Of a DNA stretch of 64,000 nt, positions 54,530 through 60,266 are shown piece after piece. Made by a program: the position numbers and the translations under genes. This stretch comes from a virus. Lineage: Duplodnaviria > Heunggongvirae > Uroviricota > Caudoviricetes. Position 1 is the stretch's first letter. The number at the start of each line of letters is the position of its first letter. Location of the stretch: the IMG/VR virus record IMGVR_UViG_2939521961_000009. One strand, written 5' to 3'. Under the pieces are notes generated by a model. The model searched no databases. It worked only from the letters and a program-made list of their open reading frames with translations, and had not been told where the DNA came from.

Positions 54530-54598
54530 ATCAGCCTCCGGTTCTCGCGTTCCCGGTAAGTTTAAAATAAAAATCCCGCGTTGTGGCGGGATTTGGAG

Positions 54599-55108
54599 TT
54601 AACGGGGAAGTGATTTTTCATACTGCCTGCAAACGGCGTCATACCCCATCAGCGTGCGTTCGGGCATTCCCATCGCGGCCAGCATTTTGCGGCGGTGCCA
54701 TCGCTTGAGACGCTCCAGCACATCTGAGGCCAGGGCGGGGTGTTGCTCCAGCCACTGCCAGTTTGCCACACCTTCGCCGCCGTTTTGCGCGGCCGTCTGC
54801 GATTTCACCCAGCGGTTAAGGGCGGTTTCCGCACCATCGGTGATAAAGCCCTGCCGGTGCATCACCTTCCAGATGGCGCGAATTTTGGCGGTCACCGTAC
54901 CCGGTTTTAAGGCCCGGTTAACCGGGTTCTGACGCACTTTAAAACCGCGTTTTTTGAAAACATCCAGCACGCGGGATAACTCATCCGGTGACATATCCCG
55001 GCAGCTGGTTTTGCCGGTGGCTGCCAGCAGCGCGGATGTATAAGTCTCATCATCCAGGGCAAGCTCGCGCTTTGCCACATGAATGGCGGATATCAGTTTT
55101 CCTCTCAT
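54599..55108 (-). CDS. GemA-like early protein
   Basis: Position immediately before Mor/C as in Mu; size 169 aa. Confidence 0.6.
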   Translation of the reverse strand: MRGKLISAIHVAKRELALDDETYTSALLAATGKTSCRDMSPDELSRVLDVFKKRGFKVRQNPVNRALKPGTVTAKIRAIWKVMHRQGFITDGAETALNRWVKSQTAAQNGGEGVANWQWLEQHPALASDVLERLKRWHRRKMLAAMGMPERTLMGYDAVCRQYEKSLPR

Positions 55109-55401
55109 ACCGTATTTACCTTTTTACGGACATGGAAAGCCTTTTCTGCCTCATCCCACCGGGCATGGTGTGTTGGTGGAATAATCATTATGTGCCAGCC
55201 ATCTCTGGTTGTTATCCGGCAGAAAAATTCACCGCTATATAACACAATGGCCTGCTGAATGAGCGCATCAGCCGCCCGTTCAACCGGATGTCTTTTATCA
55301 AAAAAGCAGATGATTTTTCGACATAACCACCGGGTAATAACAAATGCGCCGAAAAAGGATGTGATATATAAGCACCAGAACAACAGAGAACTATTGTCCA
55401 T
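55105..55401 (-). CDS. Hypothetical membrane protein, 98 aa
   Basis: N-terminal TM helix; Mu-like early accessory region. Confidence 0.45.
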   Translation of the reverse strand: MDNSSLLFWCLYITSFFGAFVITRWLCRKIICFFDKRHPVERAADALIQQAIVLYSGEFFCRITTRDGWHIMIIPPTHHARWDEAEKAFHVRKKVNTV

Positions 55402-55588
55402 TATCTTTCTCCTTATTCAGTCTTCTGCGACATTCGGCACAGTCATCAGGGCTTTCAAATGTATCCGGCTCGCGATTATGAGCCAGATATAACCACCGCC
55501 TACATATACTGATATTATCGCCAGTTTTAAAAAAATGATGCTTCTTAGCCATCAGAGGGCGCGCCCATCCAGCGGGTAGACTATTCAT
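55391..55588 (-). CDS. Hypothetical Cys-containing small protein, 65 aa
   Basis: ORF in operon register. Confidence 0.4.
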   Translation of the reverse strand: MNSLPAGWARPLMAKKHHFFKTGDNISICRRWLYLAHNREPDTFESPDDCAECRRRLNKEKDNGQ

Positions 55589-55955
55589 TTGCTTTATCCT
55601 CCATACTGGACAAAATCATCTGTATTAATGTCGGGCGTGGAGATATACGCATTTCATTAAGCGTCTGAAGGGCAGCAACAGCTGCCTGTTTATCGGTGCC
55701 TTTGGCAATTTCCGCAAGAGAATGCACAATCCATAACGGACTTAACGCCACGACTGAATCCAGAATCATGTCATCCATAATAATTTCTGACACATCCCGC
55801 TTATCACATTCCTTATCCATAAAAGAAACGATTTTTTCCACATCTTCCGGTTTCATGCCTCCGGCGATAAGAAATTTGCGATACTCATAAGACGATCTTA
55901 ATTCAATACTCATATTCATCTCCTGTAACTCTGACAAGGACGTGATTTTTCTCAT
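55581..55955 (-). CDS. Hypothetical protein, 124 aa
   Basis: ORF in operon register; preceded by 177-bp gap containing the G10 tract. Confidence 0.45.
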   Translation of the reverse strand: MRKITSLSELQEMNMSIELRSSYEYRKFLIAGGMKPEDVEKIVSFMDKECDKRDVSEIIMDDMILDSVVALSPLWIVHSLAEIAKGTDKQAAVAALQTLNEMRISPRPTLIQMILSSMEDKANE

Positions 55956-56082
55956 TTATGTTTTCCAGTAATACGGATATATATGTCGATAAGAAGATTC
56001 ATAATAAACAGGAAGAGCGACATCCTGATAAAGAACCAAATATCTGGCATCATGGACAGGTTTCCTGTAATCGCAAATATAA

Positions 56083-56092
56083 CCCCCCCCCC
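56083..56092. repeat. Homopolymeric tract C10 (G10 on the coding strand of the operon)
   Basis: Read directly: aaCCCCCCCCCCaacacc. Confidence 0.9.
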
Positions 56093-56132
56093 AACACCGG
56101 AACGAAAATTGCGAAAAATACAAGTCTCTTTA

Positions 56133-56684
56133 TCATGGCGTTAACTCCCGTAATACAGCGTCCTCGGCAGTCCGGCGATGGTGATAAATAAAATTCACCG
56201 TACTCTCGGATAATTCAAATTTCTCGCCTATTTCCCGGAAGGTAAGACGTCGTGGTGATTCAGCATCCCGTAATTCACGAATAAGATGAACATCATCGTC
56301 AGGTATACGGGTGAAGGGCAGCAATTCTCCGTATTTTTTCATGCTTACGCCAATATATCGCGCCCGATTGTGGACAGAATCCCGGTCTCGCCCCAGATAT
56401 TCTCCTATTTGCTTACCGGTCATCGTTCTGGCATTTTTTCGGATAAATTTATCTTCATCATGTTTAAATCTTGGACGTTTGCATTTGAGCAACTCCGGGT
56501 AAGTACCGCGTAATAAAACAATCCGGTTATGTACACCCCAGAAACTTCTTTTTACCCTGACAGCAATATCCTTAACCGGGGTGGATGGATAAAGCGCAAT
56601 CAGCAGCGCATCTTCTTCAGGTGTCCACGCACGGACATGAGCAGGTGCCTGACCTTTTCGCCCCATGGGTTGTAAAATCATCAT
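56133..56684 (-). CDS. Hypothetical DNA-binding protein with Myb/SANT-like motif (WTPEEDALL) and two HTH-like segments, 183 aa
   Basis: Motifs read from translation. Confidence 0.5.
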   Translation of the reverse strand: MMILQPMGRKGQAPAHVRAWTPEEDALLIALYPSTPVKDIAVRVKRSFWGVHNRIVLLRGTYPELLKCKRPRFKHDEDKFIRKNARTMTGKQIGEYLGRDRDSVHNRARYIGVSMKKYGELLPFTRIPDDDVHLIRELRDAESPRRLTFREIGEKFELSESTVNFIYHHRRTAEDAVLRELTP

Positions 56685-56687
56685 ACA

Positions 56688-57203
56688 TCACCCCCTGACT
56701 CGCTTTTCAGCAGCATAAAACTCATCAGACAGAATTTCGGTCATTTTCTGATTTGCGGGTTTTACGCCGCACTCAAGGTAAATCACATCGTCAACGCAGA
56801 ACCACTTCACAGGGCCAAACATGATTGCCGAGAAATCAATACCCAGCCAGAACAACAGTGCATCGGTTCTGGCATACGTGACGGGCGAATATTCACGCCA
56901 CAGACTGTTAAGTTCGTCAGAGGCAACGCGCAGGGCTTTGGGAATACGTGATGTGCGCGGTGTGCAGCTCCAGCCATTCGACGCAGTCGGTTTTCGCCAT
57001 AAGTCGCGATGAAAAGGATATTTGTCATCCATAAAGCGCAGCCCTTTAAAACAAAAGCCACTGATACCGGATACAAATACCGACCGGCACGCAACATTCA
57101 GCACGGCCTCAAGGCGTTTTGCCTCATCCTTAACTTTCTGGCAGTCCTGCTGATATTTTTGCCACGCGGCCAGCGCGGAAGGGTTTGATGTTTTAAAGAA
57201 CAT
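56688..57203 (-). CDS. Hypothetical protein, 171 aa
   Basis: Start overlaps upstream stop; operon register. Confidence 0.45.
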   Translation of the reverse strand: MFFKTSNPSALAAWQKYQQDCQKVKDEAKRLEAVLNVACRSVFVSGISGFCFKGLRFMDDKYPFHRDLWRKPTASNGWSCTPRTSRIPKALRVASDELNSLWREYSPVTYARTDALLFWLGIDFSAIMFGPVKWFCVDDVIYLECGVKPANQKMTEILSDEFYAAEKRVRG

Positions 57204-57736
57204 TACGCCACCTCCGCAGATATCCCGGCAGGCGCGGCCGTCCGGTCAACAATCAGGTAACGCAGAACGCGCGAGGTGATATTCCAGCCGCTTAAACCGC
57301 AGATAATGACACCCAGGCGTATGTCGATATACGCCATCACAAACTGGGGCACGCCTTCTTTCATGGCCTGCTCATCAACTTCAGCCACCACATAAACGGT
57401 TTCACAGGTCAGAACGCCCTGAGCAAATTCCCACGCCATTGACGGAATATCATGCCCCTCAATCCACGGCAGGGATTTTCTGAAGCTGCACCACTGAACA
57501 TCATCAGCCGCACCTTCCTGGCTGCATTTGCGACGAACCGGCTGCACCGGGCGGGGACGCGGAATATCATAAAAACCGTTACATTCCGTCAGCACCCCGG
57601 CATCGACCGCATCACGCAGAAAATAAACCATCGAGGATGGCGGCATATTCATTTTTTCAGCCAGAATGCCGCAGGTCAGACGCCCGTAAATACTCAGCCA
57701 GTTTTTAACCCCTTCAAGCACTTTTGCATCAATCAT
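57203..57736 (-). CDS. Hypothetical protein with possible N-terminal winged-helix, 177 aa
   Basis: Operon register. Confidence 0.45.
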   Translation of the reverse strand: MIDAKVLEGVKNWLSIYGRLTCGILAEKMNMPPSSMVYFLRDAVDAGVLTECNGFYDIPRPRPVQPVRRKCSQEGAADDVQWCSFRKSLPWIEGHDIPSMAWEFAQGVLTCETVYVVAEVDEQAMKEGVPQFVMAYIDIRLGVIICGLSGWNITSRVLRYLIVDRTAAPAGISAEVA

Positions 57737-57739
57737 GAA

Positions 57740-58282
57740 TTATTCCTCCGTCAGCGCCACATATTCAGAATGTTTAATCTCCTGGCATTCTTCAGGAATA
57801 CCCCCTTTTATTTCCCTGCCATAAGCGCCTACTTTAAACACCACGCACAGGGCATCACGGGAGAGCGACGGGGTCCACCAGGAGTCCATGTTAAACATGG
57901 AGGGGATTCTCATTACCCCCAGCTTTTCACAGAGCCAGACAAGGAAATCAGGACGCTTTCTTAACTCGCGTTCAGCGGCTTCAATCATTGCGGCAATCGC
58001 CGGTCCTTCAGGGCATGACTCATCAGGTCTGGCAATAAAGCACGGTCCGTCCCCGATAAAAGCCACATCATCGCGCTTACGCCAGCCCGCAGGCAGAGCA
58101 CCAGAAAAATAAAACTCACTGATTACGTCCATGGCAAACGGCTTTAAGCGCAATCCGGCAGCGCCTGTATTTTTCAGTAATGCCCGAAGAATACTGTTGC
58201 GTAGCGGTAAAACAGTCTGTTGATATTTGGTGAAATATTTATTTGTCTGCACACGGTCTAATTTGAAATAAAAATATGCCAT
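57740..58282 (-). CDS. Hypothetical protein, 180 aa
   Basis: AAGGAACAGG RBS before the ATG; first gene after gam. Confidence 0.45.
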   Translation of the reverse strand: MAYFYFKLDRVQTNKYFTKYQQTVLPLRNSILRALLKNTGAAGLRLKPFAMDVISEFYFSGALPAGWRKRDDVAFIGDGPCFIARPDESCPEGPAIAAMIEAAERELRKRPDFLVWLCEKLGVMRIPSMFNMDSWWTPSLSRDALCVVFKVGAYGREIKGGIPEECQEIKHSEYVALTEE

Positions 58283-58379
58283 ATATCCTGTTCCTTATTT
58301 TCAGTTTACAGGCGCAGGCAGTCCCCTGACGCGAGCGCCATACTTAAAACGATGTGATATTTAAAGATTTAATGCGGTG

Positions 58380-58910
58380 TTATTTATTCAGTCCGGCGTC
58401 CTGTTCAAAAGGCTCGACATAAAAACTTTCAGCGCCTTTATTCACCTTAATACCGGCAATGCCTTTCACTGCATCCGGCTCCGCCAGGACCGCTTCCTTG
58501 TTCACTTCCTCTTTCGTGCGGATGAATCGCTCAAGCCCCATACGGCGCAGCATTTCAATCACACCTTCCACATCACGGCTGACGCTGCATGATGGATTTC
58601 CCAGCCGCCATGATACTGTTCCGGTGGTCAGATTGGCTGTTTTGGTTTTGCCGCCGTTCGTCAGCTCATCGCGGTTGGTTTTGCACCAGTCCTGAATCCC
58701 CTTAAAAAGCACTTTGATTTCTTTTTTAAGGTTTTCAATCTGCGGCGTATAACGGGCGGTGATTTCTGCCACTTCATCATTCATCGCCGTTTCCAGCCGC
58801 AGCGCCTCTCGCTGAATATCGCCCAGGGTACGGATATCGCGGCTGACTTCTTCGCGGGTCTGCGGTGCAGCCTCGGCTGCGGCCTTTAATTTTGTAACAC
58901 GTTTAGCCAT
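58380..58910 (-). CDS. gam: Gam host-nuclease inhibitor (Mu Gam-like), 176 aa
   Basis: Close match to recalled Mu Gam (…LETAMNDEVAEI…DELTNGGKTKTANL…FIRTKEEVNKEA…). Confidence 0.85.
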   Translation of the reverse strand: MAKRVTKLKAAAEAAPQTREEVSRDIRTLGDIQREALRLETAMNDEVAEITARYTPQIENLKKEIKVLFKGIQDWCKTNRDELTNGGKTKTANLTTGTVSWRLGNPSCSVSRDVEGVIEMLRRMGLERFIRTKEEVNKEAVLAEPDAVKGIAGIKVNKGAESFYVEPFEQDAGLNK

Positions 58911-58921
58911 TTTGTTTTTCC

Positions 58922-59215
58922 TTATTGCAGTGTGCCTGATGCTTTATGCACGCGGTGGCGTTTAATGATGGCATCCGCCCCAAAAGCCTGTACAGATGCC
59001 TGAAATTCCGCTGAGAGAAACTGAATAATTTCAGGACTGTGATACTGGAGAATACTTGCATAAACGTCACAGAGTGACGTCGGCCTGTTATTCGTATCAC
59101 GTTCTGTTTTTACATCCACACCAATCTTTTCATGCACTTCAACACAGTCATTGCCTGCCGGTTTTTCGTCATGCGAAACATGCTTAAATTCAAAAATAAC
59201 GCGTACTTTGCTCAT
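58922..59215 (-). CDS. Hypothetical small protein, paralogue of the next gene (start taken at MSKVRVIFEFKHV)
   Basis: Shared N-terminus MSKV.R.IFE.K with the adjacent ORF. Confidence 0.45.
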   Translation of the reverse strand: MSKVRVIFEFKHVSHDEKPAGNDCVEVHEKIGVDVKTERDTNNRPTSLCDVYASILQYHSPEIIQFLSAEFQASVQAFGADAIIKRHRVHKASGTLQ

Positions 59216-59219
59216 GGAA

Positions 59220-59492
59220 TTACCCCTGCTGATTAAATTCATTACCTTTAATAACCCCGGAACGCATGCTCATATCTTTCATGAGCGCACTGGCTTTCAT
59301 TGCCACAAGTTCAGCAAAGTCTCTGCTTTCCGCGAGCATAACCACCCCAAAAATCATGGCGGGTCCATCACCTTTCTGCTTTATCCCGGTTGAACGTATG
59401 TCCAGACTTACCCCCATGCGCACTGTTCCATCAGCGTTTTTATGGATAACGTGCTCCTTGTATTCGAAAATAATGCGTACGACTTTACTCAT
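59220..59492 (-). CDS. Hypothetical small protein, 90 aa, paralogue of the previous gene
   Basis: Shared N-terminus; tandem arrangement. Confidence 0.45.
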   Translation of the reverse strand: MSKVVRIIFEYKEHVIHKNADGTVRMGVSLDIRSTGIKQKGDGPAMIFGVVMLAESRDFAELVAMKASALMKDMSMRSGVIKGNEFNQQG

Positions 59493-59770
59493 CCTCTGGT
59501 CCTCGTTCTGTTTGGATAACTGACCCGGCGTCTGACCTCACGGCAGAACCGAATCATGGCATTAAAGGCTTCTTCCTCCGTCACCGCTTCCGGTATCCCC
59601 GGAACCAGTAACTGCTCCTGTTCATCACGTCCATGACGCGCCATAACCTCAATCACATGCCGTACCGTGGCAGGCTTTCCGGCAACTATCGGCAATGCAC
59701 CTTCCGGCAGGACGTAACCAAACTCAATAAGACCACTCGACCACGCCCATGCAATGAGATTTTTTTTCAC
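59489..59770 (-). CDS. Hypothetical protein, 93 aa
   Basis: Operon register. Confidence 0.45.
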   Translation of the reverse strand: MKKNLIAWAWSSGLIEFGYVLPEGALPIVAGKPATVRHVIEVMARHGRDEQEQLLVPGIPEAVTEEEAFNAMIRFCREVRRRVSYPNRTRTRG

Positions 59771-59771
59771 C

Positions 59772-60038
59772 TCACACCTCCCAGTAAACCGTGCAGCCGC
59801 TGATGCGGGTGGCCTTCACACGGCGGCGCAGGCCGTTGGTCTGTATGGTGATTTCAATTTCACCGGTTCCCTGCACGTTGCCTACCGGCGGCGTGGTTTT
59901 CAGTGCAAAACGTTGCGGATAGCGCTTACTGCGTTCCAGTACCGCACCGGCAAGTTCGGTCAGACGGCGCGCGCTGTTCAGGGAGTCGAATAAATTCATT
60001 TTGTTACCGCAGGATTGCATATTCATATAACACCTCAT
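59772..60038 (-). CDS. Hypothetical protein, 88 aa (start uncertain)
   Basis: Operon register. Confidence 0.4.
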   Translation of the reverse strand: MRCYMNMQSCGNKMNLFDSLNSARRLTELAGAVLERSKRYPQRFALKTTPPVGNVQGTGEIEITIQTNGLRRRVKATRISGCTVYWEV

Positions 60039-60266
60039 TTAGCTGACTTGTTTCGCACCAACAGAACGGCATATTCCGCTGTAAACGTCTGTCGCACCTT
60101 CGCGATCAAGTCCGGCAGATATCACCATTCGTGTGCGGTCATTAAATTCAAAAAGAAAATCGCCACATTCTTTATTTTCGGCCAGTGAAATCACCTTCAC
60201 GTTATCGAAATTAACCAGGTAAAAGCGTCCGTAAATATCAGGAATATTAAATACCGCCATAATCAC
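60039..60266 (-). CDS. Small protein at the position of Mu kil, 75 aa
   Basis: Immediately downstream of B, overlapping its stop; assignment is positional only. Confidence 0.4.
   Translation of the reverse strand: MIMAVFNIPDIYGRFYLVNFDNVKVISLAENKECGDFLFEFNDRTRMVISAGLDREGATDVYSGICRSVGAKQVS

Follow-up and report, generated by a model that had tools for sequence, protein, structure and literature searches.

Genes between gam and gemA of an Sp18-type Mu-like prophage: a probable mosaic of early accessory cassettes around a gp11–gp12 core

Introduction

Bacteriophage Mu carries a semi-essential early (SEE or SE) region that is non-essential and functionally uncharacterised (PMC3820752, PMC4553209), with genes for small proteins whose functions are given as 'largely unknown' or 'uncharacterized' (PMC3820752, PMC8705779). 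In Mu lysogens, the SE genes are reported to be transcribed at a low level from Pe (PMC3820752), and 'arm' is counted among the SEE functions with no gene assigned to it (PMC4553209). Sp18 is referred to as the Mu-like prophage of O157 in two reports (PMC2669165; PMC13502914). Phage P22 has early accessory genes of its own in the non-essential 'ea' early-left region, among them eaC, and the function of EaC is listed as 'Unknown' (PMC4837284). The subject here is a block of early genes at positions 55105-58282, minus strand, between gam and gemA in a 64,000-nucleotide (nt) stretch of viral DNA (IMG/VR record IMGVR_UViG_2939521961_000009, class Caudoviricetes; the window below, numbered from its first letter).

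The block holds eight genes: orthologues of Mu gp11 (177 amino acids, aa) and gp12 (171 aa), a gene for a 180-aa protein related to EaC, a gene for a 183-aa predicted helix-turn-helix (HTH) protein, and four small genes of 61, 65, 98 and 124 aa. A preliminary description, made from the letters alone, had counted seven open reading frames (ORFs), recognised none of them and named this slot as the most likely place in the window for an undescribed system. Comparison with related prophages suggests that the block is, most probably, a mosaic of individually mobile cassettes around a small constant core and not a co-inherited system.

A mosaic between gam and gemA

About 38 gam-to-gemA loci were compared, all of them retrieved with gp11 or the 180-aa protein as query. 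Their presence/absence matrix holds at least 14 gene arrangements, and gp11 and gp12 alone are constant in all of them; loci that lack gp11 and the 180-aa protein alike were out of reach of this retrieval, and the constancy of gp11 is thus partly by construction. The four small genes come and go independently, and other genes substitute for them. The slot of the 180-aa gene, called the EaC slot here, is occupied by alleles at 23-40% identity where the flanking genes are 95-100% identical, and Mu and some E. coli variants (loci L016, L026 and L040) have no gene in it. Because the arrangements are so many, genes are gained and lost independently and only gp11 and gp12 are constant, the block reads as a mosaic. 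The separation of core from variable genes, which the preliminary description had proposed as a check, therefore leaves gp11 and gp12 as the core and everything else as variable, and the place singled out for an undescribed system proves to hold genes that are swapped independently around that pair.

Mu lacks five of the eight genes. In SfMu, gp12 is a multiply frameshifted and unannotated pseudogene (locus L075, NC_027382, 4443-4960), which means that the phage can do without gp12, unless the deposited sequence is in error. Individual dispensability would follow from these two cases, since Mu does without five genes and SfMu forms plaques with a gp12 pseudogene. A scan of genome contigs built on the gp11 alignment used two strict peptide patterns and returned one locus, in Citrobacter braakii; it has little bearing on breadth.

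Several points weigh against a mosaic pure and simple. The locus sample is drawn mostly from E. coli and Salmonella and includes duplicate contigs, and the argument from the SfMu pseudogene comes from a single deposited sequence. The HTH assignments discussed below all fall beneath the curated cut-offs of Pfam. Close coupling, together with a gp11–gp12 pair that always stands side by side and often has EaC upstream, would also fit a functional module, and to speak of 'no system at all' may be too strong for the gp11–gp12(–EaC) part of the block.

The locus and its closest relatives

All seven previously described ORFs were found on the minus strand between gam and gemA, at the positions and sizes first given. 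The count itself has to be raised to eight, because an apparent gap holds an overlooked gene for a 61-aa peptide with two transmembrane (TM) segments. The genes and their flanks are as follows, in the direction of transcription from the spacer downward, with the two flanking genes last.

gam-downstream spacer, 58283..58379, minus strand: conserved, with a GGCGC...GCGCC inverted repeat; bounds the variable slot
180-aa ORF, 57740..58282, minus strand: putative EaC/DUF5420-family protein, divergent branch
177-aa ORF, 57203..57736, minus strand: Mu gp11 orthologue, with a putative N-terminal winged HTH, a Pro-rich linker and a Gp11_C domain
171-aa ORF, 56688..57203, minus strand: Mu gp12 orthologue (PF26885)
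183-aa ORF, 56133..56684, minus strand: basic predicted DNA-binding protein with three tandem HTH modules
Remnant of the gene for the 61-aa two-TM peptide, 55952..56136, minus strand: frameshifted at a G10 run, 56083-56092
124-aa ORF, 55581..55955, minus strand: acidic protein, variable cassette
65-aa ORF, 55391..55588, minus strand: basic protein with three Cys, variable cassette
98-aa ORF, 55105..55401, minus strand: N-terminal TM anchor and soluble C-terminal domain, variable cassette
Gam, upstream flank, 58380..58910, minus strand: Pfam Phage_Mu_Gam 1.5e-41; 57% identity to Mu Gam
GemA/gp16, downstream flank, 54599..55108, minus strand: Pfam GemA 3.2e-30; 44% identity to Mu GemA

The packing is as tight as had been claimed: neighbouring genes overlap by up to 11 nt or lie up to 3 nt apart (-11 to +3), a spacing that fits a translationally coupled operon, and the start of gemA overlaps the stop of the 98-aa ORF. 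Every one of the seven ORFs matches a PHROG family over essentially its whole length (E 2e-32 to 2e-105), and all seven are annotated as coding sequences (CDS) in RefSeq. Inside the block, the frequency of promoter-like and terminator-like sites does not exceed that of shuffled sequence, and an Rfam scan of 53.9-59.3 kb gave zero matches.

The flanking genes follow the order of Mu on the minus strand, with A, B, a kil-like gene, Gam, GemA and Mor all identified; in RefSeq, the neighbours are Mu transposase, B ATPase, a Kil-family protein, Gam, gp16/GemA and Mor, followed by lysis and head genes. The DNA of the block is matched in 233 of 5426 complete E. coli genomes, 207 of which hold at least 80% of it, and 36 E. 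coli records match it at 99% identity or more. In the chromosomes of E. coli strains, O157:H7 among them, it recurs with 99.9-100% identity, and the stretch 54000-59300 matches the 'inserted bacteriophage Mu-like phage' region of two records of Shiga toxin (Stx) phages. Because of the Mu-order neighbours and the matches to E. coli and Stx-phage records, the block is identified by sequence as the early region of an Sp18-type Mu-like prophage. It is likewise assigned to the gam–gemA part of the classical SEE region, with which it agrees in position and strand and shares orthologues of two Mu SEE genes, gp11 and gp12; the Mu-type early accessory slot seen in the preliminary description is thereby borne out. 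Sp18 of E. coli O157:H7 Sakai and related enterohaemorrhagic strains (EHEC) is among the closest described relatives. Between the window and O157:H7 strains, DNA identity is 99.9%, and the annotation of those strains gives the same string of hypothetical proteins. The window copy differs in its one-base frameshift in the 61-aa gene. In E. coli 8479, the cluster occurs both on a 166-kb plasmid (NZ_CP074995.1) and on the chromosome (NZ_CP074994.1), and some genomes contain up to four copies; this occurrence is consistent with a transposition-active prophage.

In Mu, the SEE genes gp11 to gp15 (E10-E15) have the same gam–gemA position, strand and operon-like packing. The window shares with them its orthologues of gp11 (67% identity) and gp12 (54%), whereas Mu has gp13, gp14 and Mu_54 in place of the 183-, 61-, 124-, 65- and 98-aa genes and lacks the EaC/DUF5420 gene. 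Mu encodes a gp9-type HTH protein upstream of gam, but the window counterpart lies downstream of gp12 and has an extra module. SfMu carries a DUF5420 gene between gam and its gp11 orthologue (40% identity to the window 180-aa protein), and its gp14 is a homologue of the window 124-aa protein (36% identity), which also has homologues in Yersinia Mu-like phages (vB_YpM_3/5/6/23 being the Yersinia phages compared). SfMu retains gp13 and gp14 of Mu and has none of the 183-, 61-, 65- and 98-aa genes. The spacer downstream of gam, about 97 nt long, is kept in Mu, SfMu and Sp18-like loci whatever gene follows it (gp11 or an EaC allele), and it may mark a boundary of recombination or serve in regulation or processing; in fold prediction it does not outdo shuffled sequence (z -0.1).

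Two further observations concern the surroundings. The kil-to-gam half of the early region (58922-60266) is equally mosaic: its 106-, 90-, 93- and 75-aa ORFs are present as alleles at 62-97% identity or are absent in near-identical prophages, and several of the ORFs in this half are low in guanine-plus-cytosine (GC) content, at 42-45%. Between gemA and mor, a terminator-like hairpin with a 9-bp stem and a following T run lies at 54571-54594 on the minus strand, unlike in Mu, where gemA and mor overlap within one operon.

Small low-GC cassettes

The cassette genes have a GC content of 38-46%, compared with 52-57% for gam, gp11, gemA, A and B. The overlooked eighth gene fills the apparent 178-nt gap at 55956-56132 and is a RefSeq CDS in relatives. 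Its peptide, with two predicted TM segments, has a hydropathy of 2.55, and at both ends the gene shares an ATGA with its neighbour, by start and by stop. The window has a run of ten G residues; the otherwise identical E. coli 2012C-4502 has eleven, and its gene is intact. In other relatives the tract is an interrupted G/T one, 16 nt long where the gene is intact and 17 nt long where it is frameshifted. The case is one of either a slippage hotspot or a homopolymer sequencing error.

The 124-aa ORF is assigned an inner ATG start in RefSeq, giving 110 aa (55581-55913). It encodes an acidic protein (isoelectric point, pI, 4.8; phrog_1988, 5e-44), has 40.5% GC and is missing from many relatives. 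The family of the 65-aa ORF (phrog_2358, 2.6e-33; 44% GC) is represented in 287 phage records, most of them from PB1-like lytic Pseudomonas phages. The 98-aa ORF (phrog_17269, 2e-32) is the one for which an N-terminal TM helix had been noticed, and a 19-residue hydropathy of 1.82 at residues 5-23 agrees with this; among phage records, its protein is confined to this prophage lineage. In the window and loci L003, L014 and L030, it exists as two alleles, which are 51% identical overall and near-identical in the TM segment. The soluble C-terminal domain is strongly diverged between them, a pattern that points to diversification or cassette exchange confined to that domain. Searches of the Protein Data Bank (PDB) by sequence with the 124-, 65- and 98-aa proteins gave nothing below E 0.1.

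Some of these cassettes (the 61- and 98-aa membrane proteins, the acidic 110-aa protein and the 65-aa protein) could conceivably be stand-alone counter-defence or exclusion genes, each acting alone in early lytic growth or from low-level prophage transcription, a reading that we regard as possible and yet doubtful. Their low GC content and cassette-like gain and loss would suit it, as would the diversification of the 98-aa alleles around a conserved TM anchor, the small acidic protein, and the low-level Pe transcription across the SE genes of Mu lysogens (PMC3820752); the 65-aa family is moreover shared with lytic phages of a different genus, a distribution typical for mobile accessory genes. 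Yet zero matches to characterised anti-defence or exclusion proteins were obtained by sequence or structure, in searches that did not include a dedicated anti-defence library. The Pfam, PHROG and NCBIfam matches carry no anti-defence, anti-restriction or exclusion annotation, and the NCBIfam and PADLOC scans of the seven proteins gave nothing useful; in PADLOC-DB no defence component was matched, the sole match being a weak one of the HTH protein to a homing-endonuclease model (E 0.008).

The EaC/DUF5420 protein and gp12

The 171-aa ORF is 54% identical to Mu gp12 over its full length and is the orthologue of that protein. Its relatives in the cluster carry PF26885; full-length relatives have at least 46% identity and come only from E. 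coli and Salmonella. A profile search of the PDB with gp12 gave nothing below E 0.1.

The 180-aa protein has zero Pfam matches, and DUF5420 (PF17457, cut-off 26 bits) gives none at E values up to 1; it is too divergent for a direct match to the Pfam model. Its close relatives P0004 and P0014 reach just 15-15.6 bits, whereas genes in the same slot with 23-38% full-length identity to it score 51-53 bits, above the DUF5420 cut-off. An alignment-based search with its family finds Salmonella PF17457 proteins at E ~1e-70, and the ORF itself matches phrog_2260 (1e-74). A profile search of 1.84 billion representative proteins returned 141 relatives, mostly single-domain proteins of ~170-210 aa, one distant member of which matches eaC of P22, ST64T and other P22-like phages, together with Vibrio phage genes. 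The profile of the protein's own family matches ST64T EaC with E 9e-13 over residues 19-208, and the pairwise comparison gives 24% identity (E 7e-6). Since its slot-mates pass the DUF5420 cut-off and its profile matches ST64T EaC, the 180-aa protein is assigned by homology to the P22 EaC/DUF5420 family as a divergent member. The P22 gene resembles it in being an early accessory gene of a non-essential region, but in P22-like phages eaC adjoins xis/int, in another type of phage and among other neighbours. One related locus (L050, 4862-5988) has two tandem divergent EaC/DUF5420 genes upstream of gp11, with 38% and 31% identity to the window protein.

AlphaFold2 models of the two proteins are confident (mean predicted local distance difference test score, pLDDT, 89.6 for the 180-aa protein and 91.3 for the 171-aa gp12) and have the same order of secondary-structure elements. 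Nine of the ten top BFVD matches of the gp12 model are also matched by the 180-aa model, each of the shared matches with a probability of at least 0.28 and most with 0.9 or more. In HHalign, a broad DUF5420 profile aligns with the gp12 family over 153 columns with a probability of 87% (E 4.1e-6); significance was reached with the broad profile only, narrow profiles giving a non-significant E of 0.26, and a plain hidden Markov model of gp12 matched none of 139 DUF5420 representatives. Because the models are confident, the fold searches have matches in common and the profile comparison reaches E 4.1e-6, EaC/DUF5420 and Mu gp12 are assigned, on the strength of predicted structures, to one fold and one superfamily as remote paralogues. 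The fold is spread over Mu-like, P22-like, Vibrio and actinophage genomes. No solved structure related to it is informative, and a functional study of DUF5420, Mu gp11/gp12 or EaC did not turn up in literature searches.

gp11, the 183-aa protein and predicted DNA binding

The 177-aa ORF is the orthologue of Mu gp11, with 67% identity over the full length, a Pfam Gp11_C match of 7.9e-40 (135.5 bits against a cut-off of 27) and a phrog_1949 match of 2e-105. Weak HTH matches cover residues 13-49 (HTH_24, E 0.01; HTH_10, 0.05-0.18), and weak HTH or winged-helix matches fall at the same place, within the first 60 residues, in four gp11 homologues (E 0.01-0.2). The winged helix suspected in one of the ORFs can thus be located at the N-terminus of the gp11 homologue, through matches that are consistently placed and weak.

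The 183-aa protein is basic (pI 9.9), matches phrog_323 ('transcriptional regulator, D5-like') over its whole length (6e-59) and bears the RefSeq name 'DNA-binding protein'. It is made up of three tandem modules of the form [W/F]xxE(E/D)D...HTH. Overall, it is 31% identical to Mu gp9 (E 7e-9), and its modules 2 and 3 have their counterparts in the two that make up Mu gp9/E8, with pairwise E values of 7e-8 and 7e-4, which makes it, by homology, a putative HTH protein built on the Mu gp9/E8 type. Several Pfam HTH families match residues 131-167 below threshold, the best being HTH_AsnC (22.4 bits against 27). In relatives, two alleles occur, at ~95% and ~71% identity. The Myb/SANT-like motif and HTH segments reported earlier do have Pfam counterparts, all of them sub-threshold: Myb_DNA-binding scores 14.7 bits (cut-off 24.4) and Myb_DNA-bind_6 15.0 bits (cut-off 22.9), over 13 residues only, and a Myb/SANT domain is not supported. 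PDB sequence searches with the 183- and 177-aa proteins and a profile search with gp11 gave nothing below E 0.1.

Four of the seven ORFs, none of them recognised earlier, therefore have identifiable relatives: Mu gp11, Mu gp12, Mu gp9/E8-like modules and P22 EaC/DUF5420. The profile and structure searches proposed at that stage did place these four in families, and no function came from any match. None of the ORFs matches a housekeeping function and none has an established one; to this extent the description of unknown accessory genes stands, as does its statement that the sequence establishes no function, with a lower novelty than it suggested.

The evidence assembled so far also bears on a narrower kind of system, in which EaC/DUF5420, gp11 and gp12, perhaps with the HTH protein, form one functional module and the small cassettes are unrelated add-ons. 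A DNA-binding gp11 with one or two EaC-fold partners would then, for example, boost Mu-type replication (the classical, unmapped 'arm' or amplified-replication function) or put a host factor out of action. For such a unit it speaks that gp11 and gp12 lie next to each other, overlapping by 1 nt as ATGA, and occur in all related loci; EaC lies directly upstream of gp11 in most lineages, including SfMu and the Yersinia Mu-like phages, and is duplicated in L050; given the fold shared by EaC and gp12, gp11 would be flanked by two paralogues, and among the SEE functions arm is still without a gene (PMC4553209). However, Mu and the E. coli variants L016, L026 and L040 have no EaC gene, SfMu is viable despite its disrupted gp12, P22-like phages have EaC next to xis without gp11 or gp12, and the gp11 and gp12 families are found in Enterobacteriaceae only (E. 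coli, Salmonella and Citrobacter). We consider the module unlikely. A bolder version, in which the EaC–gp12 fold is a widespread early phage effector whose Mu-like paralogues bracket gp11 as a module against a host defence or nucleoid factor, or as 'arm', seems decidedly improbable. A mosaic with a constant gp11–gp12 pair remains the reading we prefer.

The block as a single system

The suggestion that all seven or eight genes make up one undescribed host-takeover, anti-restriction or superinfection-exclusion system is largely refuted by the mosaic distribution and must now be called very improbable. The early accessory position, the tight packing and the presence of membrane and DNA-binding proteins speak for it, and allelic diversification in otherwise 95-100% identical prophages (23-40% identity in the 180-aa slot, 51% for the 98-aa and 71% for the 183-aa protein) would also suit it. 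These features have to be set against independent presence and absence in at least 14 arrangements, a composition that differs from gene to gene (38-53% GC), the fact that unrelated phages contain single members (EaC in the P22-like ones, the 65-aa protein in the PB1-like ones), the frameshift of one member in the window and scans of PADLOC, Pfam and PHROG that matched no defence or anti-defence family.

That the small ORFs are chance open frames is scarcely credible: the 65- and 98-aa ORFs are short, mutually overlapping and without Pfam or NCBIfam families, but full-length PHROG matches (E below 1e-32 for each) and RefSeq CDS annotation tell against chance frames, and spurious ORFs were ruled out by protein conservation across phages that reaches other genera.

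Proposed role and significance

By analogy with Mu, we infer transcription from Pe, dispensability and the biochemical roles named here. The eight genes, which all point the same way and mostly overlap, would belong to a long early operon, transcribed from Pe and extending over A, B, kil and gam as far as gemA, perhaps with low-level transcription in the lysogen as well (PMC3820752). The constant pair gp11 and gp12 would have been inherited from the Mu lineage; an EaC/DUF5420 gene, with the predicted fold of gp12 and remotely paralogous to it, would have been inserted between gam and gp11, a three-module HTH protein of the Mu gp9/E8 type added, and four small low-GC cassettes exchanged between related prophages. 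The products would be individually dispensable accessory proteins of the early lytic phase. The gp11 homologue and the 183-aa protein would bind DNA and tune phage or host transcription or DNA transactions, the proteins of the EaC/gp12 fold would serve as protein partners or modulators, and the 61- and 98-aa membrane proteins would work at the envelope.

Much of this ground is already known. Hundreds of public genomes already contain the sequence, with its genes annotated as hypothetical proteins; Pfam and PHROGs include its families, and as a class the region has been on record as uncharacterised for a long time. A phage specialist will find nothing surprising in it. The analysis adds an eighth gene, frameshifted and previously missed, places the 180-aa ORF in the EaC family, traces the HTH protein to the gp9 type, sets the core genes apart from the cassettes and links EaC with gp12 by a predicted common fold. 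Concrete candidates for functional tests are thereby named, and the problem is narrowed with no new system revealed.

The SEE region has been 'largely uncharacterised' for ~40 years, and early accessory regions often hold genes for host takeover or counter-defence. The genes described here remain worth including in functional screens. Since pathogenic E. coli, O157:H7 among them, commonly carry the prophage, any phenotype would have some practical reach. The link between Mu gp12 and P22 EaC/DUF5420, as predicted from the models, would join two classic sets of unknown genes into one superfamily.

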